Under the pieces are notes generated by a model, which worked only from the letters and a program-made list of their open reading frames with translations, did no database searches and was not told the DNA's origin. This document shows, piece by piece, positions 31,771 through 58,873 of a stretch of DNA of 64,000 nucleotides (position 1 is the first letter of the stretch; every line of letters starts with the position of its first letter). This DNA is from a bacterium (lineage in GTDB: Bacteria > Zhuqueibacterota > Zhuqueibacteria > Residuimicrobiales > Krinioviventaceae). A program made the translations under genes and the position numbers. The DNA lies in NCBI GenBank assembly GCA_963693055.1, contig OY843751.1, forward strand, positions 6,272,001 to 6,336,000, given 5' to 3'.

Positions 31771-32664
31771 ATGAAAAGGATAGTTTTACTTTTTGTGATA
31801 TTGCTTCCGGCTGTAATGTTTGCTGCCGGTGAAACCGGATTAGCTGCTTTAAAAATTGGAATTAGTGCTCGTGCAAGCGGAATGGGTGAAGCATTTACCG
31901 CAACTGCAGATGATGCTTCCGGATTGTTTTGGAATCCAGCAGGTACTGCCTGGGTAACCAAACGACAAGCAAGTTTTACCTATAACCAATGGTTGCAGGA
32001 TATTTCTCACAACTCGGCTGGCATTGTTTTTCCTTCCTCTAAAGGAGTTATTGGTTTGGGCATTATGCTAAACAGTGTTGATGATTTTGAACGCCGTATC
32101 ATTGCTTCTGAAGAACCTTTGGGAACATTTTCAATTCAGGATGTTTCCTTTTCTCTCAGTTATGCCAAGATGATGGGAAGCAAGCTGTCATTGGGTGTTC
32201 GGACCGCCTTTTTATATGAAAAAATTTACACGGAATCTTCAAGTGGTTTTGCTTTTGATCTGGGTGCCAGATACAGTCTAATTTCAGATAAATTGTTTGC
32301 TGCTGCGGCTTTGCAGAATTTGGGTTCTATGTCTGAGATGGTTATTGAATCTGTGGAACTGCCAAAGGTATTGCGGGCAGGTTTAGCTTATCATTTTCCC
32401 ATGTTTCCCGGATCTCAGGCTTTGATTGCTGCTTTAGATTATGTTCAATATCTTGAAGGAGACAGTCATATTCATGCAGGTTTGGAGTATAATCCGGTAT
32501 CTGTTATTACATTACGTACCGGTTTTCAAACCGGCTATGAAGAAAAATCTATATCTGCAGGATTTGGATTGGATTTTGGTTTTATTGTTATCGATTACGC
32601 TTATGTCCCTTATGAAAACGACCTCGGAAACGCTCAACGGTTCTCACTTGCAGCCCGTTTTTAA
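31771..32664 (+). CDS. PorV/PorQ-family outer-membrane beta-barrel (second paralogue)
   Basis: LKIGISARASGMGEAF..FWNPAG; IDYAY..LGNAQRFSL..RF. Confidence 0.85.
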   Translation: MKRIVLLFVILLPAVMFAAGETGLAALKIGISARASGMGEAFTATADDASGLFWNPAGTAWVTKRQASFTYNQWLQDISHNSAGIVFPSSKGVIGLGIMLNSVDDFERRIIASEEPLGTFSIQDVSFSLSYAKMMGSKLSLGVRTAFLYEKIYTESSSGFAFDLGARYSLISDKLFAAAALQNLGSMSEMVIESVELPKVLRAGLAYHFPMFPGSQALIAALDYVQYLEGDSHIHAGLEYNPVSVITLRTGFQTGYEEKSISAGFGLDFGFIVIDYAYVPYENDLGNAQRFSLAARF

Positions 32665-38243: not shown

Positions 38244-38894
38244 ATGAACTTGAGAAAAAAACCAGAAGTCAGCCTGCGCTTTAAATATAAAAAAAATATT
38301 GAGCTGGGCATGGTTTTAACCCTGGCATTACTGGTTTTAGGGTTCCAGGGTTGGAAAAAATTTGAAAAAGGAGAGGTCGAGCAACAGGTTGTGGATTTGA
38401 CCATCAAGGTTGAGGAAATTCCACAAACTGAGCAAACAAAACGTCCTCCCGCACCTTCACGGCCTGCAATTCCTGTAGAAAGTGAAGATGAAGACATTGA
38501 TGTTGATGAAACCATCGAATCAACCGAGATCAATCTCGATGAATTACCACCACCACCACCACCACCAGAAGAAGATATTGATGATTCTGCAGAAATCTTT
38601 GTGGCTTATGATGAACCTCCACAGCCAATTGGTGGATTTGCAGCTATCCAGAAAAATTTGGTTTACCCTGAAATTGCGCGTAAAGCAGGTGTTGAAGGTC
38701 GTGTTGTAATCAACTGTTTGATTGATGAAAAAGGTAGCGTAGTTAATACCAAAGTACTCATGTCTTTGGGAAATAATGGTTGTGATGAAGCTGCTATTGC
38801 TGCTATCAAAAAAGCAAAATGGAAACCGGCAAAGCAACGTGATAAACCGGTTAAAGTTTGGATTGGTATCCCGGTTGTATTCCGGTTGAAATAA
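38244..38894 (+). CDS. tonB: TonB family energy transducer (copy 1)
   Basis: N-terminal TM, poly-Pro linker, YPEIARKAGVEGRV. Confidence 0.92.
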   Translation: MNLRKKPEVSLRFKYKKNIELGMVLTLALLVLGFQGWKKFEKGEVEQQVVDLTIKVEEIPQTEQTKRPPAPSRPAIPVESEDEDIDVDETIESTEINLDELPPPPPPPEEDIDDSAEIFVAYDEPPQPIGGFAAIQKNLVYPEIARKAGVEGRVVINCLIDEKGSVVNTKVLMSLGNNGCDEAAIAAIKKAKWKPAKQRDKPVKVWIGIPVVFRLK

Positions 38895-40164: not shown

Positions 40165-40809
40165 ATGAAATTTGCTAACAAAGAATTTAAAAGCCGCTAC
40201 CAACGCAACTTTGAACTGTCTCTGGTTTTGTCTTTGGTATTTCTGATTGCCGTTTTTCAAGGCTGGAAACAGTTTGAACATGAGGCTAATGTTGTAATTC
40301 CGGAATTTGACAAACCTATCTATGCCGAGAACATTCGTACTGTTTATCCCCAAAAAATACCCAAACCCTCCAGGCCAGCTATTCCGGTAGAGACTGATGA
40401 TCCGGATGTACCTATTGATGCTACAATTGAAGGTAATAGCAAATTTATTACCAATATTGTTCCACCACCGCCACCATTTAATCCTGAAAAGGAAAAGATT
40501 GACAATGATCCTTTTATCAGTTATGATGAACCACCTACACCAGTTGGTGGATTTATGGCTATTCAACGCAAGGTTGTGTATCCTGAAATTGCCCGCAAAG
40601 CTGGTGTAGAAGGTAGAGTGGTTGTTAAATGTTTGATTGATGAACGTGGAAACGTTATTGAAACTCAAATTCTTCAATCTCTGGGCAACAATGGATGTGA
40701 TGAGGCAGCCATTACAGCGGTTCGTTCTGTAAAATGGAAAGCCGCTATGCAGAGAGATAAACCGGTCAAAGTTTGGATTTCTGTACCTATTACATTCAGA
40801 TTGAAATAA
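40165..40809 (+). CDS. tonB: TonB family energy transducer (copy 2)
   Basis: Paralogue of 38244-38894 with conserved C-terminal domain and diverged linker. Confidence 0.92.
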   Translation: MKFANKEFKSRYQRNFELSLVLSLVFLIAVFQGWKQFEHEANVVIPEFDKPIYAENIRTVYPQKIPKPSRPAIPVETDDPDVPIDATIEGNSKFITNIVPPPPPFNPEKEKIDNDPFISYDEPPTPVGGFMAIQRKVVYPEIARKAGVEGRVVVKCLIDERGNVIETQILQSLGNNGCDEAAITAVRSVKWKAAMQRDKPVKVWISVPITFRLK

Positions 40810-41026: not shown

Positions 41027-44000
41027 ATGAGGTATATTATGAAGTTTCGTAGTATATTCATTTTTCTGTTTAGTCTGAGTGTATGCATAAACACAATGGC
41101 TCAGAGTGTTTTGTCTGGCAGAGTTTACAAAGGAACTACAGGAACAGAACCCCCGGTTTCAGAGCCAATTGCAGGTGCAAGAGTTTGGCTTTTGGGTGCC
41201 AATAATCCTTCCATCTCTACAGCATATCTGGTGGATAGTACATATACAAATTCCGCCGGCTGGTTTGGTTTAAATGTTCGGCAGATTTGCGAGTTTTATT
41301 TTATTAAAGAAATTGATCCTCCTGGTTATACCTCCAAAGGTGCTACTACAGTCAGCGGAACTGTTATAAATAATAATGTAATACAATACGATTACCCCCT
41401 GGATAACAAGACATTGACAGGTAACAAGTTCTGGGACGATACCTCGGGAAGCAGCAATAATCCTCCGGTTGCTGATGCCGGAGGACCCTATACAGCAACG
41501 GTAGGTCAATGGATTACGCTAGTAGGTTCCGGCAGTTATGATCCTGATGCTGGAGATAAAATTGTTTCATACGAGTGGGACTGTAATCTGGATGGTGTTT
41601 ATAATGGTGCGGGTGATGTGACCTGTATTTATGGAGACACGCTATTTGCCTGGTACAGTCCATATTCAGGTAATATTAGATTACGTGTAACAGACACACA
41701 TGGTGCAACAGATACCGATCTGGCATCTGTTAATATATATCAGGAATCATCCCAGTATGAATATGACTTTGGCGATGCACCTTCTCCTTTTAAAACCCTG
41801 CTTGCTGACGGCGGTCGATATTTTACTGTAGATACTTTATTGTTTATGGGGCAATCGGTTGATATAGATACAGACGGTCAACCAACTGCACAGGCCAAAG
41901 GAGATGATAATGACGGTAATGATGATGAAGATGGGGTGATTTTTACAACATTGTTAATACCCGGGACCGTTGCCTCGTTCTCTGTCGATATCAGTAATTC
42001 ATCACCTTTTGCACAGCCGCAACTTGAAGCATATATAGATTTTGATGGTAATGGCACCTGGGAAGTACAGGAACGAATAGTAGATCAATCCATAACACCC
42101 GCGATCCAGAGTACGCTAAATTTTAGTGTACCTTTTTCTGCAGTAGCGGGTAATACATTTGCAAGATTTGTAGTTTATGATAAAGGCCCGGTACCACCAA
42201 ATGGAACACCTATTGGTGAAATTGAAGATTATATGGTGAATATTGAATACGAAACAGAGGGAGGTTCTATCATTGTACACAAAATTGCTGATCCCGCTGA
42301 TGGTACCCCCTTCCAGTTTACGGGAGATTTGGGATCTTTTACTTTGATTGATCCTTCTAGTCCACAAAAAATATTTACAGGCATCAATGCTGGGAAATAC
42401 AAAATATATGAAACAGATATTCCCGGATGGCTCTGGTTTGCCTTGGGATTGGCTGGAAATTCATTTAGCGGAGTTCAGATTGACTGGGCCAATCATTTCA
42501 TGGAAGTGGATTATGATGCCTCCGGTGATCTCAATTTATACTTTTTTAATATGGCCGAACCCGGCCTTGATTTTGGAGATGCTCCCGATGCATATAAAAC
42601 AACACTTGCCTCTAATGGGGCCTATCACTTGCCCGGTGAAGTCATGTTGGGCCAGCGTATAGATACGGAACCGGATGGCCAACCTTCTTCACAGGCAAAC
42701 CAGGATGATCTGAATGATAATGACGATGAAGACGGTGTTACGTTTACTACTACACTCGTCAAGGGCCAGGCTGCAACAGTGCAGGTTGATGTTTCAGGTC
42801 CCCCCGGACTGTTGGGCTCCTTGGCCGGTTGGGTCGATTTTAATGGTGATCAGGTTTTTGATAATATCACAGAGAAAGTGGTTGACGATGTTATTACCAC
42901 AAATGGAGCAGTCATTAATAAAACCTATACGATCAATGTTCCTTCCAGTGCGGTTATTGGAACAGCCTATGCGAGATTTAGAGTCTATCAGACCGAACCG
43001 TTGATGCAGATTGTAACTTTTCCTGAAGGGGCTGGTGGCATTGGAGAAGTTGAAGATTATGTTGTTACGATATCCGATAGTGATGAGGAACTGGATTGGG
43101 GAGACGCCCCGTTACCCTATCCTGAAGCTAGTCATTCTATTGGATTGGTTTGGCTGGGTGATTCGTTTGATCAACCGGATGCTGAAACATCAATGCAGCG
43201 TCACCCGGATGCATTGGGCGACGATAATGATGCTCAGGGAGATGATGAAAACGGATTGATTGATGCTATACTGGTACATCCTGATAAGGGATGGAGTATG
43301 TTAAAATTAAAAGGACAGACAATAAGCGACAGTATTAAAGTGGCAATGTGGTTGGATATTAATATGGATGATGACTGGGATGATGTGGGTGAAGAAATTT
43401 TGAGTTTTGCGGTTTTGTGGGGAGCAACACCGGGACCGTTCCCGGCAGGAAGTACCTGGGTTGAAGCGGCTGTTATATTTAAAATGCCGGCTGGTACACA
43501 AACCGGAGTAACCTTTGCAAGATTGCGTGCAATGAATGGTTTTAATAATCCCATTCCTGTAAGCGGATATGTGGAAACAGGCGAAGTTGAAGATTATGTT
43601 TTGGATATTATTAATGATGATTCACCTGTTCCGGAGGGTGGTTTTACCCACGGTTACAAGTGGAATGATCTCAATGGTAATGGAATTAAAGATGCTGGTG
43701 AACCGGGATTGTCCGGTTGGGAGATCTGGCTGGATGCAAATAAAAATGGTGTTGAGGATGCCGGAGATAAATATGCTATAACCGATGCACAGGGGCATTT
43801 CGAGTTTACCGGTCTTGAGCAGGGTGATTATATTGTTGGGGAAAAATTGGAATCCGGATGGGTGCAAACTTATCCGGCATCACCCGGAACGCACACGGTT
43901 CAGGTTGTGCCGGGACAGTTGATGCAGGCTGTCTGGTTTGGCAATCATAAAGAAGGTGGCAGCGGTGGTGAAGGATTTTTAAAATGGAGTCAACGCCCTA

Positions 44001-45451
44001 TACTGGGCAAGATGGAAGCGGATTCTGTTTGCTTTGCCGGTTGGTCTGAGCCCTCCTTGATCGACAGGGAAGGCCCAAAAGTTGTGTTGGCAGATGATTG
44101 GTTTTGTGCGGATAATAATCCTGTTACCGGAATTCGATGGTGGGGAGTATATGCCGGATGGGATTCTCTGCAAACACCGGATTATGCTCCGGAAGCATTC
44201 CATGTTGGCATCTGGCAGGATGTTCCTGCTGGAGTGGATAGTGCGTGGAGTCATCCCGGGGAATTGGTGAGATCTTGGTTGTTGGAGCAGTCACAGGTGA
44301 ATGAACACTGGGTACGCTGTCAAAGCGGTGATGGAATGTTTCATGATGAATGTTTAACGGCATTTGAATATTTTTTCAGCATTCCTGCTGACGAGTGGTT
44401 TCTGCAGGAAACGGATTCCACAGTATGGTGGCTTAGTGTAGCCGCAGTCTATGATTCAATACCACCTGAAGATCATGAACGATGGTATCCCTGGACATGG
44501 TTGACTCGGGAACATTATTTTGGTGATGATGCAATCGTAATGCCCCCACCTTTGGATCTTGAACCGGGAGCAATACCCGAATCTCATTTCCCGCTAGCAG
44601 AGATGTGGGATTTATCTTTCGAGCTGACGACGGATCTGGATTTTCGCATGTTTGATTTTGGTGATGCTCCAGACCATTACGGAACATTGCTTGAGCATAA
44701 CGGGGCACAGCATGCTTATGATCCTGATGTGTATATGGGTAACCGAATTGACGTAGAAGATGATGGTATGCCGCATGATGAATTGTTGGGTGATGACATG
44801 AATGATCAGGATGATGAAGATGGTGTTGAAATGATAAATATTGCAGGTCCGGGTGAAATTGCAGAGATCAGAGTAAAGCTTTCAAAAAGCGGATATTTGA
44901 GTGTCTGGGCAGACTATGATCGAAATGGTGTATGGTATGAAGAGGATAATAATGTATTCTATAATTTCATACTCCCTGCGGGTAGTCATGATCTGAGTTT
45001 TTTAATCCCCGAATATGTTGAGCCGGGGCAGGTAGCAACGCGTTTCCGTTTTTCTACTCGACCCAATCTCTGGTTTAACGGATATGCAGTTGACGGAGAA
45101 GTTGAGGATTACCTGATGGAAATTGCAGAACCGGTATCTGTTAGGGATGAGCAGATAAAGAGCAAGCTTCCGCAGGAATACATATTGTATCCTAATGTTC
45201 CGAATCCATTTAATCCTGAAACGCAGATCCGATACGATCTGCCTGAGCAATCTCGAGTTGTGTTGCTTGTATATAATATTATGGGACAAAAGATTGTAGA
45301 GCTGGTTAACGCTGATCAGCCGGCAGGGAGATATAGCTTTAACTGGAATGCTTGTGATCAGTACGGGAAACCGGTGTCAACCGGTGTTTACCTGTATCGT
45401 ATGCAAACGGAAACATTTAGCATGACACGGAAAATGATATTGATACGATAA
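41027..45451 (+). CDS. Large secreted surface protein: PKD-like domain, four DFGDAP...GEVED repeats, SdrD-B-like domain, T9SS-like CTD
   Basis: Signal peptide; NNPPVADAGGPY; four D[F/W]GDAP...GE[V/I]EDY units; KWNDLNGNGIKDAGEPGL; C-terminal NVPNPFNPET...TGVYLYRM...KMILIR. Confidence 0.85.
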   Translation: MRYIMKFRSIFIFLFSLSVCINTMAQSVLSGRVYKGTTGTEPPVSEPIAGARVWLLGANNPSISTAYLVDSTYTNSAGWFGLNVRQICEFYFIKEIDPPGYTSKGATTVSGTVINNNVIQYDYPLDNKTLTGNKFWDDTSGSSNNPPVADAGGPYTATVGQWITLVGSGSYDPDAGDKIVSYEWDCNLDGVYNGAGDVTCIYGDTLFAWYSPYSGNIRLRVTDTHGATDTDLASVNIYQESSQYEYDFGDAPSPFKTLLADGGRYFTVDTLLFMGQSVDIDTDGQPTAQAKGDDNDGNDDEDGVIFTTLLIPGTVASFSVDISNSSPFAQPQLEAYIDFDGNGTWEVQERIVDQSITPAIQSTLNFSVPFSAVAGNTFARFVVYDKGPVPPNGTPIGEIEDYMVNIEYETEGGSIIVHKIADPADGTPFQFTGDLGSFTLIDPSSPQKIFTGINAGKYKIYETDIPGWLWFALGLAGNSFSGVQIDWANHFMEVDYDASGDLNLYFFNMAEPGLDFGDAPDAYKTTLASNGAYHLPGEVMLGQRIDTEPDGQPSSQANQDDLNDNDDEDGVTFTTTLVKGQAATVQVDVSGPPGLLGSLAGWVDFNGDQVFDNITEKVVDDVITTNGAVINKTYTINVPSSAVIGTAYARFRVYQTEPLMQIVTFPEGAGGIGEVEDYVVTISDSDEELDWGDAPLPYPEASHSIGLVWLGDSFDQPDAETSMQRHPDALGDDNDAQGDDENGLIDAILVHPDKGWSMLKLKGQTISDSIKVAMWLDINMDDDWDDVGEEILSFAVLWGATPGPFPAGSTWVEAAVIFKMPAGTQTGVTFARLRAMNGFNNPIPVSGYVETGEVEDYVLDIINDDSPVPEGGFTHGYKWNDLNGNGIKDAGEPGLSGWEIWLDANKNGVEDAGDKYAITDAQGHFEFTGLEQGDYIVGEKLESGWVQTYPASPGTHTVQVVPGQLMQAVWFGNHKEGGSGGEGFLKWSQRPILGKMEADSVCFAGWSEPSLIDREGPKVVLADDWFCADNNPVTGIRWWGVYAGWDSLQTPDYAPEAFHVGIWQDVPAGVDSAWSHPGELVRSWLLEQSQVNEHWVRCQSGDGMFHDECLTAFEYFFSIPADEWFLQETDSTVWWLSVAAVYDSIPPEDHERWYPWTWLTREHYFGDDAIVMPPPLDLEPGAIPESHFPLAEMWDLSFELTTDLDFRMFDFGDAPDHYGTLLEHNGAQHAYDPDVYMGNRIDVEDDGMPHDELLGDDMNDQDDEDGVEMINIAGPGEIAEIRVKLSKSGYLSVWADYDRNGVWYEEDNNVFYNFILPAGSHDLSFLIPEYVEPGQVATRFRFSTRPNLWFNGYAVDGEVEDYLMEIAEPVSVRDEQIKSKLPQEYILYPNVPNPFNPETQIRYDLPEQSRVVLLVYNIMGQKIVELVNADQPAGRYSFNWNACDQYGKPVSTGVYLYRMQTETFSMTRKMILIR

Positions 45452-52214: not shown

Positions 52215-53981
52215 TTGAAACGGATTAATGCTTTAGCCCTGATTATTATAGTAATGACGATGCCGTTGTATGCAGACGCGTCACTTTCCCTCAATGTTAC
52301 ATTTCCATCAAATCCCGATACGTTTTCGCTGGACAAGGTTAGGTTGTCTGGTAATACTCTGCCCGGTGCGCATGTGTTTGTGAATGACAAGCCAGTCAAG
52401 GTTTATCCTTATGGTGCTTTTGTCACCCGAGTTGAACTGGAGGATGGTGAAAATTTGATCCGTGTCCGTGCGAACAAGGGTGATCAGCAAACAGTACAGG
52501 AAATAGTTGTTTTACGTCCACCAAAACTGGTTGAAACAGATACGGTAGAAACCGTGATTGATACACTGTACCAGGTACCGGATAAAGATGTGATGGTACT
52601 GCCCGGAGATTATGTTTGTGTAAAATTTAAAGGAACACCTGACGGGGATGCCAGATTTTCAATTGAAAAGATAGCGGATCAAGTTCCCATGATAGAGCTG
52701 CCACCGGGAAAAGCATTTGGCATGCGGGGTATTTACAGCGGTATTGTGCAGGTGCATGAAGGTCCACGAAACCGTCCTCTTGATATTGAATGTGAACTGC
52801 GTGGTAAAGATGGCAAACGTAAAAAGATAAAACTTTCTGGTCAAGTATTTATCATGTCTGATGATGTTCCGGTAGTTGCCGAAACGAGAGAAGAAACCTG
52901 GCTGCTAAATACCGGGGATGGATTCATTCCCAAATCACTTATGCAGGAAGGGACGCTGCTACATATTGTAGGGAAAACCGGTGACCGTTTCAAGGTAAGG
53001 TTGGGGCACGGCAAATACGGATATGTAGATGACCAAAAAGTAACCTTGCTGTCATGGGGAACCGATATACCCAGGGCCAGAATTTCTGCACCTATACTAG
53101 CGTTTGATGAGCAGTATTTTAAGTTGCGTTTTCCCGCAAATGTACTGGTACCTGTCACCATTGCTTCTGATCCTGCAAGTAAAGATATTGTGCTGACCTG
53201 GTATGGAGCGCAGCAAGCCTCTCATTGGATTACATATCCTAATATTGATACGGGAATTGAAAATGTTGCATTTTCTTATCCCGAAGAAGGGGTCTTTCAG
53301 GCAAGTATAACAACGGAAAATAAAGATTATTGGGGCTATAGTGTATATTATGATGAATCCGGTTATCATGTGAAAATATTAAAAGCACCAGACATGGAGA
53401 ATGTTCAGGAAAGTTCATTTCTAAAGGGCTTGACCCTGGTTTTGGATCCTGGACATGGTGGTGAATTTGAAGGTGCTGTGGGCCCTATGGGTTTTTTGGA
53501 AAAAGAAGTGAATTTACTTTGGGCCCAGGTTTTAAAAGACAGTTTGGAAAAATATGGAGCAAAGGTTGTATTAACCCGTAACTCGGATGAAACCGTGTCA
53601 TTAAAAGAGCGTGTGGATATTGCCCGCAGGCAAAAAGCACAGTTGTTGCTTTCTTTGCATAATAATTCTACAACACCCGGAGGTAATGCCGAGAGTGCGC
53701 GTGGTACAAGTGTTTATTTTTACCATCCTCACAACAAGGACTTGGCCTGGGCAATCTATCCGCACCTGGTGGACTTGGGATTAGCGCCTTATGGTCGGAT
53801 ATATAACTCTTATTACATTACCCGGGTTACGGATATGCCGGTTTTGCTTATAGAAGGCGCATTTCTTTCTCATCCCGATGAAGAGCAAAAATTTGCTGAT
53901 CCCAAATTTTTGCATCAACTCTCGGGCGCCGTGATCAAAGGGTTACGTGATTTTCTAACCAAACCATCAGCAGGTCAATAA
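52215..53981 (+). CDS. N-acetylmuramoyl-L-alanine amidase (Amidase_3) with long N-terminal accessory domains
   Basis: LDPGHGG, EKEVNL, LTR, SLHNN, LIEGAF; signal peptide. Confidence 0.9.
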   Translation: MKRINALALIIIVMTMPLYADASLSLNVTFPSNPDTFSLDKVRLSGNTLPGAHVFVNDKPVKVYPYGAFVTRVELEDGENLIRVRANKGDQQTVQEIVVLRPPKLVETDTVETVIDTLYQVPDKDVMVLPGDYVCVKFKGTPDGDARFSIEKIADQVPMIELPPGKAFGMRGIYSGIVQVHEGPRNRPLDIECELRGKDGKRKKIKLSGQVFIMSDDVPVVAETREETWLLNTGDGFIPKSLMQEGTLLHIVGKTGDRFKVRLGHGKYGYVDDQKVTLLSWGTDIPRARISAPILAFDEQYFKLRFPANVLVPVTIASDPASKDIVLTWYGAQQASHWITYPNIDTGIENVAFSYPEEGVFQASITTENKDYWGYSVYYDESGYHVKILKAPDMENVQESSFLKGLTLVLDPGHGGEFEGAVGPMGFLEKEVNLLWAQVLKDSLEKYGAKVVLTRNSDETVSLKERVDIARRQKAQLLLSLHNNSTTPGGNAESARGTSVYFYHPHNKDLAWAIYPHLVDLGLAPYGRIYNSYYITRVTDMPVLLIEGAFLSHPDEEQKFADPKFLHQLSGAVIKGLRDFLTKPSAGQ

Positions 53982-55519: not shown

Positions 55520-55942
55520 TTAATCTTTATAGATAGTGATCTTGATTCTTGCTGACGTACTGACCAGAAAGGGAATATTTACCCCGGATTCGATATAAAA
55601 TGGATCGGGGTAAGCATCTTCCAATACAAAACTGTTCCAGTAGCCCGGTTCCCAGTGCTCTTCATTGTTGGATTCGGTTTTTCCACCTATTTCGGCAGTC
55701 ATATAATTGATCTGATCGTAATTTTTTGTTTCCATTGCGTATAGGTATTTGCCGGGTTCTACATATTTACCATTGTCGTCTTTGCCATCCCAAAAGTAGA
55801 CATACCTGCCAGATTCTGTAAAAGTTTGATCAACCAGCAGTCTTATTTTTTCTTTTTGGGTCTCACCTTCTTCAAGTGGATTGCTGCAAAAAACAAGACT
55901 GCCTGCTATTGTCAATAATATAAAAGTATATATTCTATTCAT
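55520..55942 (-). CDS. Small putative lipoprotein consisting of a circularly permuted FlgD-Ig/T9SS-like CTD
   Basis: Hydrophobic leader ending LVFC; FWDGKDDNGKYVEPGKYLY precedes AYPDPF...IKITIY. Confidence 0.7.
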   Translation of the reverse strand: MNRIYTFILLTIAGSLVFCSNPLEEGETQKEKIRLLVDQTFTESGRYVYFWDGKDDNGKYVEPGKYLYAMETKNYDQINYMTAEIGGKTESNNEEHWEPGYWNSFVLEDAYPDPFYIESGVNIPFLVSTSARIKITIYKD

Positions 55943-55985
55943 AACACTGTTTTAACGAATATGATTTGTCAACGTTCCCAAAAAA

Positions 55986-56951
55986 TTAATATATCAGACC
56001 GGTTTTTTCTTTTGCCGGTTCAAGAAATGTTTTGGCAACTGCACGTGCTTTTTCTGCCCCCATTTTCATGATATCATAAACATCATCTTTGTGGTTCATA
56101 TAATGTTCACGTTTTTCACGATAGGGTTCAAAATATGCCCAAATGGTTTCGAGCAGTTCTTTTTTTACATCGCCATATCGCATACCCGGTGTTATGTAGC
56201 GTTGTTTCAACTCTTCCTGACCGGCTTTATCCAGAAATAGAGAATAGATAGCATACAGGTTACAAGTTTTGGGATCTTTGGGTTCTTCGATTGGGGTAGA
56301 GTCGGTTACAATAGACATTACCTTTTTCTTTAAGGGCTTGTAATCCGCAAAGATTTCTATTGTATTGTCATAAGATTTTGACATTTTTTGTCCATCCAGG
56401 CCAGGTACGGTAGCCACATCGGTGGGGATTTCTGGTTCAGGAATGACAAAAGTTTCGCCATACATTTGGTTGAATTTAATAGCAATGTCACGGGTCATTT
56501 CAACATGCTGCTTTTGGTCTTTACCCACGGGGATCTTGTTAGCGCCATAAAGTAGAATGTCTGCTGCCATTAAAACCGGATAAGCAAACAGTCCATGATT
56601 GGCGGCAATGCCTTTGGCTTTTTTGTCTTTGAACGAGTGTCCGCGTTCCAACAAACCCATGGGTGTAATGTTGGAGAGGATCCATGTCAACTCTGTAACT
56701 TCGGGAACATCAGATTGTACATAAAAATATGATTTTTCGGGATCAATGCCCAAGGCCAAAAAGTCACAAATGGCTTCAAACGTATGTTTGCGTAAACGTT
56801 CACCGTCAGTAACGGTGGTGAGTGCGTGATAATTTACAATAAAACAAAACAGTTCATGATTTTCCTGGTAATCGATCATTCGTTTCATCATTGCAAAATA
56901 ATTGCCCAGGTGAAGGCTGCCAGAGGGCTGAATGCCGGAAAGAATTCGCAT
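55986..56951 (-). CDS. trpS: Tryptophan--tRNA ligase
   Basis: SGIQPSG.LHLGNY, YPVLMAADIL, VGKDQKQH, KMSKS. Confidence 0.98.
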   Translation of the reverse strand: MRILSGIQPSGSLHLGNYFAMMKRMIDYQENHELFCFIVNYHALTTVTDGERLRKHTFEAICDFLALGIDPEKSYFYVQSDVPEVTELTWILSNITPMGLLERGHSFKDKKAKGIAANHGLFAYPVLMAADILLYGANKIPVGKDQKQHVEMTRDIAIKFNQMYGETFVIPEPEIPTDVATVPGLDGQKMSKSYDNTIEIFADYKPLKKKVMSIVTDSTPIEEPKDPKTCNLYAIYSLFLDKAGQEELKQRYITPGMRYGDVKKELLETIWAYFEPYREKREHYMNHKDDVYDIMKMGAEKARAVAKTFLEPAKEKTGLIY

Positions 56952-58394: not shown

Positions 58395-58465
58395 ATTGGT
58401 GATCTAAAGTGTTGATAAAAAAAGCAGATTTTAAGAATAAGGAATATAATAAACAGGAGCCACCT

Positions 58466-58873
58466 ATGAAACGCATGATGTTTGTTAGTATATTGGTATT
58501 GTTGACCGCGCTTTCGGCTTTTGCGAAACAGCCAACAGTTGTAGACGCAAAGATTGATCCTGCAGTAGCCGCACCGGGTGCCAAAGTTGTTATTACCGTC
58601 GAGTTTACCGGAAAAACAGCGGATGTTAAATCAGTTGAAGTATTGGTTAAAGAATATCCCTATGATGCACCGGAAATGATCTTGCAGCCCAAAGAAGGCA
58701 GTGAGAAAAATGTATGGGAACTGGTAGGTCAGGTACCTTATGAAGCACCTTTTGAAAAATTAACCCTGGAAGTAAAAGCATTGGATAAAGACGGCGAACA
58801 AATTGTTACTGAAGCATGCAAAGACCAGTACTGGGGTAAAGCCGCAAAGCTGATGTTTGAAATCAAACAATAA
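58466..58873 (+). CDS. Hypothetical secreted Ig-like protein
   Basis: MKRMMF start after AGGAG; signal peptide ending AFA; beta-rich body. Confidence 0.7.
   Translation: MKRMMFVSILVLLTALSAFAKQPTVVDAKIDPAVAAPGAKVVITVEFTGKTADVKSVEVLVKEYPYDAPEMILQPKEGSEKNVWELVGQVPYEAPFEKLTLEVKALDKDGEQIVTEACKDQYWGKAAKLMFEIKQ

Follow-up and report, generated by a model that had tools for sequence, protein, structure and literature searches.

A circularly permuted FlgD-Ig/CTD-like domain in a family of small predicted lipoproteins

Introduction

Type-A C-terminal domains (CTDs; TIGR04183/PF18962) of type IX secretion systems (T9SS) are 7-stranded beta-sandwiches; in the part of PMC10994853 considered here, their conserved motifs specify the fold, a near-C-terminal lysine is the only other conserved feature, and the translocon binds them via a plastic, shape-fitting and mostly hydrophobic pocket (SprA/PorV). 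The FlgD_ig domain (PF13860) occurs in the FlgD hook-cap protein and in giant tandem-repeat surface proteins. Here we describe an open reading frame (ORF) of 140 codons plus stop, 55520..55942 (-), whose product (the window protein) carries both halves of such a sandwich in swapped order behind a leader of lipoprotein type. Positions are those of the window, the whole 64,000-nucleotide stretch that was analysed (GCA_963693055.1, contig OY843751.1, 6,272,001 to 6,336,000); the host genome is complete (100%) in one contig of 6.54 Mb with 39% G+C.

The family to which this protein belongs resembles type-A CTDs in fold class, in the YP(N/D)PF start and in the WDG..D..G..V..G.Y core, but its strand order is rotated (4-5-6-7-linker-1-2-3) and its domain makes up the whole protein behind the leader rather than the C-terminus of a cargo; it also lacks a recognisable last-strand basic motif, has an extra structured linker and matches no CTD model of Pfam or NCBIfam. 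Likeness to FlgD_ig is seen in the Pfam match, in FlgD (3osv) and in colinearity with repeat junctions; in contrast to FlgD_ig proteins, the family consists of a single permuted domain with a predicted lipid anchor, its own linker and, near the N-terminus, the motif C-x-N-P.

Little larger than a CTD, the PorA protein of Porphyromonas gingivalis feeds PorXY-SigP signalling and is a precedent for a CTD-type fold without enzymatic cargo having a role of its own; compared by description only, the PorA CTD is canonical, C-terminal and exportable, whereas the family is permuted, predicted to be lipid-anchored and distributed in a way that does not follow T9SS. NlpI-Prc and LbcA-CtpA exemplify outer-membrane lipoprotein adaptors of periplasmic proteases, NlpI and LbcA being tetratricopeptide repeat proteins, and staphostatins and AprI are small beta-fold proteins encoded just downstream of their protease. 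By analogy, the family may be likened to these systems in that a small gene lies directly downstream of a secreted peptidase gene (S9, or S41 tricorn-like in family f22), with an amidase gene nearby; there is no sequence or fold relation to them, and the lipoprotein-peptidase partnership is not obligatory.

Results

Two halves of the domain in swapped order

The reference was the canonical CTD encoded in the window, the last 84 aa (45197..45448 (+)) of a 1474-aa protein (41027..45451), defined by sequence and as profile seed, in which the A half precedes the B half. To obtain a CTD profile, we took the last 85 aa of this protein as seed and searched iteratively through the C-terminal 110 aa of 10,959 ORFs (each ≥80 aa); the search gathered 252 sequences, and removal of the window protein left 251 C-termini from its own genome. 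HMMER aligned residues 32-82 of the window protein to positions 33-82 of the resulting hidden Markov model (HMM; 33.8 bits) and residues 111-138 to HMM positions 2-27 (9.5 bits), in swapped order. Using hhalign with a 12-sequence family alignment, the B half (query 31-76) was aligned to CTD positions 32-76 (P 2.6e-12, probability 97.6) and the A half (query 111-138) to positions 2-27 (P 4.6e-7, probability 92.6). A 27-sequence alignment against the 251 CTDs gave the same picture (B, P 3e-12; A, P 1.7e-7). A preliminary description of the window, made from the sequence alone, had proposed that the halves are exchanged, and these two independent significant matches bear it out; the ORF and the peptide stretches quoted there, together with the A and B stretches of the 41027 protein, are all present in the sequence.

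The B half, residues 31-84 (55691..55852 (-)), corresponds to strands 4-7 of the 7-stranded CTD/FlgD_ig sandwich by hhalign, Pfam and predicted strands, and bears the motif WDGKD..G..V.PGKY. The A half, residues 111-140 (55523..55612 (-); YPDPF..GVNIPFLV..RIKITIYKD), corresponds to strands 1-3 by hhalign, column shuffles and predicted strands, and the protein ends at the point where the canonical domain turns into strand 4. Between them, residues 85-110 (55613..55690 (-)) are unaligned to CTD profiles; conservation and structure prediction mark them as a family-specific structured linker that would take the chain from the former C-terminus to the former N-terminus.

The shorter A match was examined with shuffled controls. 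The A part alone scored 39.0, compared with a mean of 10.2 (standard deviation 2.3, maximum 18.4) for 60 column shuffles and 15.0 for the reversed A part. Placing A first raised the best single-domain score in 27/27 members (mean 22.4 to 32.2 bits), and a shuffled A part gave 22.4 bits, with no gain. For the window protein, rotation raised the score from 31.8 to 40.2 bits with any cut within the linker, where the scan peaked. The rise anticipated by the preliminary description was therefore found in every member, but it was modest and not sharp as had been expected. Both segments show homology to the reference domain; they are contiguous, stand in rotated order and together cover the domain once, as defines a circular permutant. 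These comparisons confirm, at the level of sequence, that the circular permutation is real and well beyond chance.

Curated models recover the domain in part. Pfam FlgD_ig (PF13860) matched residues 42-74 at profile positions 45-77 of 79 (23.9 bits, E 4.2e-5), below the gathering cut-off of 27; only the B half was seen, and no colinear match over the ~79-position model was obtained. FlgD_ig was the best and sole Pfam match in 26/27 members at E ≤1 (best 2e-5), with CHU_C weakly matched in 6/27 (best E 0.027) and Por_Secre_tail (PF18962) absent from all 27 members at the same threshold. NCBIfam returned weak FlgD rows for the window protein, and no TIGR04183 match at E ≤10. Because those models are colinear, they miss the family, and the permutation defines an unnamed family that curated models have overlooked.

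Conservation and distribution

We found 11 homologues of 139-145 aa and 18 genomic loci with the whole architecture; all members are 133-157 aa long, with the stop directly after the 'IYKD' strand. Alignment A2 holds 27 sequences, three of the 18 loci being left out: L009 and L018, whose contigs equal in length those of P0001 and P0010 already included, and the N-terminally cut L020. Invariant in 27/27 are C19, N21, P22, G45, W51, G53, G64, Y66, L107, P112, P114, F115 and G120; within the linker, G86, G87, K88 and N92 are nearly invariant, and E98, G100 and L107 are also conserved.

A profile search of 167 genomes of the phylum revealed one full-length copy each, without internal stops, in 61/167, so that homologues with the same permutation, for which the preliminary description had suggested a search, do exist and retain the architecture in all 27 aligned members. 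The copies fall in two clades of the phylum: they occur throughout most of the window's order (f1, 17/18; f2, 1/1; f3, 8/8; f4, 14/14; f5, 0/1), are absent from families f6-f19 (0 copies), and reappear in further classes (f20, 4/4; f21, 4/12; f22, 5/5; f23, 3/3; f24, 2/2; f26, 2/2). Among the genomes counted are two unpublished ones (G158 and G162), which have SprA but not the family and on which no conclusion depends; excluding them, SprA is present in 161/165 and the family in 61/165. Comparison with the same-genus copy gave a ratio of nonsynonymous to synonymous substitution rates (dN/dS) of 0.11 at dS 0.34, indicating purifying selection.

Searching 1.84 billion representatives added ~30 further small clusters. 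Of the small proteins in this wider family, 43/45 span B through A, and every complete one has a leader followed by Cys-x-[N/D/S]-P and a stop within a few residues of the last strand. No longer or fused homologue appeared at E ≤1e-3 among 200 candidates, which is weak evidence. The nearest clusters in the ESM Atlas are small FlgD_ig proteins of 133-138 aa (scores 0.90-0.93), which serve as a lead only. The sole public name found for the family is 'hypothetical protein', and a literature search limited to one paper collection yielded no published description of such a family; in the part of PMC12618676 considered, the 'permut' wording refers to statistics.

Predicted structure

We predicted the structure with AlphaFold2 (AF2). 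With 27 sequences, the mean predicted local distance difference test score (pLDDT) was 88.2 and the predicted template modelling score 0.75, the five models agreeing (86.3-88.2); pLDDT reached 96-98 over residues 31-140, linker included. With 12 sequences the mean pLDDT was only 68.9. Strands were placed at residues 31-41, 45-51, 64-71, 76-84, 96-99 (short, within the linker), 121-127 and 131-139. Because the five models agree at pLDDT 96-98 over residues 31-140, one chain is predicted to close into a single compact sandwich. In such a sandwich the conserved 26-residue linker would bridge the former C- and N-termini, the new ends of the chain would lie in the former strand 3-strand 4 hairpin, and the domain would hang from the membrane on an 11-residue tether attached to lipidated Cys19.

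Structure searches returned generic beta-sandwich and jelly-roll domains throughout. Foldseek against the PDB gave no match at E ≤1e-3 for either AF2 model. The best Z in the wide VIA search was 5.3 for the first model and 5.6 for the second (7rej_A, root-mean-square deviation 2.8, 68 aligned), and a VIA re-check of the Foldseek top 996 chains gave a best Z of 5.4. FlgD (3osv) was matched at VIA Z 4.5 over 68 aligned residues and is also the best PDB sequence match (E 0.022); the PDB sequence-profile search gave weak FlgD matches only, to the B half.

Probable origin from tandem FlgD_ig arrays

A further 114 large proteins, which contain 849 matching stretches, came from the search of representatives. 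In 49/114 of these, all tandem FlgD_ig proteins, 94 stretches run B-linker-A colinearly with the family (median 101 aa); P0034, for instance, has 11 FlgD_ig domains. In BLASTP, query residues 33-138 align across the junction of neighbouring repeats, and 'PDPFKV' opens the second repeat. As B-linker-A is colinear with adjacent-repeat junctions, sequence comparison suggests an origin by excision from a tandem FlgD_ig array: a stretch made of the second half of one repeat, the linker and the first half of the next would have been cut out. Such a stretch is the intermediate to be expected on the classic route by which duplication and truncation give circular permutants. Such an excision would have removed the free C-terminal strand, and with it any T9SS signal function. 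The result is a clean natural circular permutation in the FlgD-Ig/T9SS-CTD sandwich, and the junction of tandem repeats, its likely parent form, can still be seen in databases.

The type of parent is less specific than the preliminary description had assumed in naming a secretion-signal CTD. Both halves are indeed homologous to the 251 CTDs, but hhalign against 688 internal FlgD_ig repeat units gave matches as good (B, P 3.4e-13; A, P 6.4e-7). Since internal repeats match equally strongly, homology to the genome's own CTDs is not specific for CTDs; the scores of the two profiles are alike and do not discriminate between a CTD and an internal-repeat ancestor, so the parent cannot be called a secretion signal. 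No local parent in the form of a tandem-CTD protein was found among the CTD-bearing ORFs of the own genome (0/250). The preliminary description had also held that a truncated fragment of a tandem-CTD gene would undo its proposal; colinearity with repeat junctions bears this out in part, pointing to a tandem array as the source, but the product is an intact single-copy family under purifying selection and not a fragment.

Leader and locus

The ORF starts with MNRIYTFILLTIAGSLVFC and, by its homologues, single-copy presence and dN/dS, encodes a predicted lipoprotein with a permuted FlgD-Ig/CTD-like domain. Residues 1-19 (55886..55942 (-)) form a signal peptide (MNR plus a hydrophobic core) up to Cys19, a conserved residue and the predicted lipidation site; the leader, MNRIYTFILLTIAGSLVF and then C, is positively charged in its N-region, continues in a hydrophobic core and places Cys at the site of cleavage. 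As the preliminary description stated, there is no cargo domain and the leader ends in Cys, which is invariant in 27/27; the mature lipoprotein of ~121 aa is the domain alone. Residues 20-30 (55853..55885 (-); SNPLEEGETQK) are an acidic/basic tether predicted at low confidence (pLDDT ~55, below 50 at residues 25-27). The lipobox consensus at -3 to -1 is L-[ASTVI]-[GAS]; the window protein reads L-V-F there, and across the family position -1 is variable (F, T, N, R, K, Q, G, H, A, S). From its sequence, Cys19 is predicted to be lipidated.

On the same strand, trpS (55986..56951) ends 43 nt upstream of the lipoprotein gene. By locus comparison, most relatives carry a ~677-aa DPP5-like S9 peptidase gene in place of this gap (55943..55985 (-)), whose sequence is nearly identical in the same-genus locus L009. 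A thioredoxin-like gene (AhpC/TSA, Redoxin) starts 76 nt downstream, followed by a cytidylate-kinase-like gene and a convergent N-acetylmuramoyl-L-alanine amidase gene; the amidase is convergent and downstream in 11/18 related loci as well as in the window. It is encoded at 52215..53981 (+) as a protein of 588 aa with a Glucodextran_B-like N-terminal domain (29.4 bits) and then Amidase_3. A scan for promoters and terminators gave counts no different from shuffled sequence, and a look-up of sequencing runs listed no RNA data.

Association with an S9 peptidase gene

We then compared the genes upstream of the lipoprotein. In 16/18 loci the gene immediately preceding it on the same strand is a ~677-aa S9 gene, L009 being without the gene and L020 without upstream DNA; the gaps range from -25 to +518 nt, with overlapping genes in four loci. 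The S9 protein has PD40 repeats and a Peptidase_S9 domain (Pfam), and among NCBIfam models it is matched best by DPP5 (570 bits along the full length of the model, below the cut-off of 900). It carries a type-I signal peptide and neither CTD nor lipobox, and all 15 sequences aligned (the N-terminally cut L025, the sixteenth, being left out) share GxSYGG, Asp and His without variation. DPP5 of P. gingivalis is periplasmic.

By coordinates, the pair is present in 34/41 family-bearing genomes of the window's order. Among the exceptions, the orthologue is absent from two (G000, the window genome, and G085), two end at contig ends (G086, G099), one 70% complete genome has no S9 found (G108), and two have other neighbours (G114, G115). 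Other classes show the pair in at least 8/20 genomes (6 by coordinates, plus G037 and G042). In a distant subfamily (31-44% identity among members), S9 lies upstream in 2/2 metagenome contigs that extend far enough, L113 (at a gap of 3 nt) and L115; its three further contigs are without upstream DNA. The S9-then-lipoprotein order is kept where trpS upstream is replaced (L013, L016, L017, L018, L022), and the downstream genes vary. One 96% complete genome, G083, is without both lipoprotein and S9 gene.

The large upstream gene in three f22 genomes encodes a tricorn-like PD40+PDZ+S41 peptidase, with a DksA-like gene as well. At L104 (951-4705), L105 and L110, from G031, G030 and G029, the lipoprotein follows a 1071-aa tricorn-like protease (PD40, Tricorn_C1, PDZ_Tricorn, Peptidase_S41; Pfam on L104 only) and a DksA/TraR zinc-finger ORF. 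Two locus-type S9 genes, at G107:C44:31320-33329 and G116:C199:4735-6765, each have one in-frame TAA; G116 (78% complete) is also without the lipoprotein.

The window genome appears to have lost the cognate peptidase gene and kept the lipoprotein under purifying selection (dN/dS 0.11). An S9 paralogue in this genome (C1:1386008-1388053) was considered as a relocated partner and rejected: its identity to the locus-linked enzymes is 38-41%, whereas those enzymes share 55-67% with the reference L011 enzyme; a quick tree (the careful search being unfinished) places it on a long branch; and it has no adjoining small lipoprotein gene.

Relation to type IX secretion

The own genome has a T9SS, with SprA (661.7 bits), PorV (114.8 bits), two PorU sortases (882.6 and 876.3 bits) and ~250 CTD-bearing ORFs; it holds 11 PorV/PorP-like barrels. 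The sortases are tandem PorU-type paralogues of 1362 and 1363 aa (G000:C1:6252356-6259881, ~12-20 kb before the window start), above the NCBIfam cut-off. Within the window, a 327-aa ORF, one of these 11 barrels, gives a weak PorV-family match at ~31834..32229 (+) (G000:C1:6303834-6304229) of 26.4 bits, or 27.5 with in-frame neighbours.

SprA is found in 163/167 phylum genomes vs 61/167 for the lipoprotein family, which is therefore not a general T9SS part, and no T9SS gene was seen among the annotated neighbours of the lipoprotein, some flanking ORFs being unscanned. The connection to the translocon or PorV envisaged in the preliminary description found no support in either comparison. Moreover, 235/250 CTDs of the own genome end within 10 aa of the protein C-terminus; the window protein has no passenger to terminate. 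CTD profile positions 77-84, the last strand with its conserved basic residues, are unaligned in the family; the near-invariant K88 follows the equivalent strand, and its equivalence to the CTD lysine is putative. In annotation the family is best kept separate from T9SS cargo, to avoid inflating secretome counts that are based on CTDs. If motifs specify the fold and the pocket reads shape, as in the part of PMC10994853 considered, a correctly folded permuted sandwich would be possible as a ligand; and if the fold does still fit the CTD pocket, it offers a ready probe of what T9SS reads, fold shape or free C-terminal strand.

Two own-genome ORFs have a CTD-type domain that is not C-terminal: a 407-aa ORF (G000:C1:6101221-6102444 (-)) has a full-scoring CTD (102.7 bits) at residues 85-168 with ~240 residues following, and C1:3216524-3217231 has its CTD at residues 109-175 of 235.

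Discussion

We tentatively favour a lipid-anchored, closed, permuted FlgD-Ig/CTD-like sandwich that would act as the membrane-tethered partner of a secreted DPP5-like S9 peptidase, and not as a secretion signal or plug. The tethered sandwich may bind the soluble, signal-peptide-bearing, CTD-less peptidase or its substrates and hold the peptidase at the membrane, with a logic resembling that of lipoprotein adaptors of periplasmic proteases; in the window genome the lipoprotein might act alone or with the 40%-identical S9 paralogue at C1:1386008-1388053. Should it tether a periplasmic DPP5-like peptidase, it would be a new lipoprotein-adaptor type for envelope proteolysis in an uncultured FCB-group phylum.

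Several observations weigh against a peptidase partnership or against details of this proposal. The window itself is without an upstream S9 gene, trpS lying 43 nt upstream, and the same is true of L009; the only S9 in the window genome and in its same-genus relative is of paralogue level (700 bits vs at least ~790-1296 for the locus-linked class), and no small lipoprotein gene was found beside the own-genome paralogue. As the lipoprotein is conserved where the S9 orthologue is absent, it does not strictly depend on that peptidase. Conversely, many genomes that lack the lipoprotein do have an S9 orthologue of more than 1000 bits (e.g., G116, G011, G001, G117, G002), and the lipoprotein has unrelated neighbours in f20 (SDR, Smr, SDF transporter) and in genus g21 (DUF1684, GH5, amidase). 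Pair counts are not independent, because synteny is shared by descent and loci L009-L026 probably overlap the genomes counted. At the position preceding Cys19 the window protein has Phe, and others have K, R, N, Q or H, which is not typical of a lipobox. Finally, structure searches depend on sequence order and cannot confirm a permuted topology; their failure is expected of a rotation and proves nothing.

The main rival, which we regard as possible but doubtful, is a stand-alone envelope lipoprotein unrelated to S9 or T9SS, for instance a small binding module or a factor tied to the cell-wall amidase, with peptidase adjacency as inherited synteny. Purifying selection that persists where the S9 gene is gone, the convergent amidase downstream in 11/18 loci and the window, the clades with unrelated neighbours and the S9 orthologues without a lipoprotein are all consistent with it; the S9-lipoprotein order, however, persists while other neighbours change, the pair recurs in the distant subfamily, and stop and start codons overlap in four loci. 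Unlikely, in our judgement, is a T9SS pseudo-substrate, in which a lipid-tethered, non-exportable CTD shape docks in the PorV/SprA pocket or with periplasmic T9SS parts as plug, decoy or regulator. The full T9SS signature of the genome and the homology of both halves to its own CTDs would suit such a role, as would the shape-reading pocket described in part of PMC10994853, which is compatible with a permuted but correctly folded sandwich. It is at odds with a distribution of 61/167 against 163/167 for SprA and with whole orders rich in CTD-like candidates that lack the family (f6-f19 = 0), with the annotated neighbours, which include no T9SS gene, and with the equally good match of non-signal internal FlgD_ig repeats. 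The unaligned last strand with its basic residues (positions 77-84), the structured 26-residue linker, a bulk absent from canonical CTDs, and the lack of TIGR04183 or Por_Secre_tail matches (NCBIfam E ≤10, Pfam E ≤1) speak against it too. A further reading seems to us slightly less likely still: a lipid-anchored pseudo-CTD that has retained the shape read by the T9SS carrier and translocon pocket and by means of it parks the CTD-less DPP5-like peptidase at PorV-type barrels or the translocon, or gates the translocon, as a secretion signal turned docking device; it would be neither released nor threaded, because the former terminal strand is internal and the new N-terminus would be fixed in the membrane.

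The preliminary description also considered a head-to-tail polymer, in which the B half of one molecule pairs with the A half of the next to give a lipid-anchored filament or dimer. Since B-linker-A equals the junction of neighbouring repeats in order and in length (94 stretches, median 101 aa), complementation between chains is geometrically conceivable, but all five AF2 models show a fold closed within a single chain, at pLDDT 96-98 with the linker included, and the near-invariant Gly, Lys and Asn of the linker are as for a fixed return loop; polymerisation is not needed to complete the domain, and we consider it improbable. A chance ORF or decaying fragment of a tandem-domain gene is scarcely credible: the protein is short, falls below the Pfam cut-off and is named only 'hypothetical protein', but full-length single copies in 61 genomes with no internal stops, dN/dS 0.11, the invariant leader Cys and the confident fold prediction contradict such an origin, and this conservation refutes it in practice.

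Further features of the window

The 1474-aa CTD cargo (41027..45451 (+)) contains, by eye, at least 4 similar modules with a 'FGDAP'/'WGDAP' start, a 'GE(V/I)EDY' end and acidic 'DDxNDxDDEDG' between. Two paralogous ORFs of ~215 aa, 38244..38894 (+) and 40165..40809 (+), have near-identical C-terminal thirds (…GVEGRVV..CLIDE.G.V…KPVKVWI..P..FRLK), which we take to resemble TonB C-terminal domains. At 58409..58873 (+), beside an ornithine aminotransferase-like gene, lies the gene for a secreted-looking 154-aa protein without a Pfam match, whose homologue was seen only in the same-genus locus L009.

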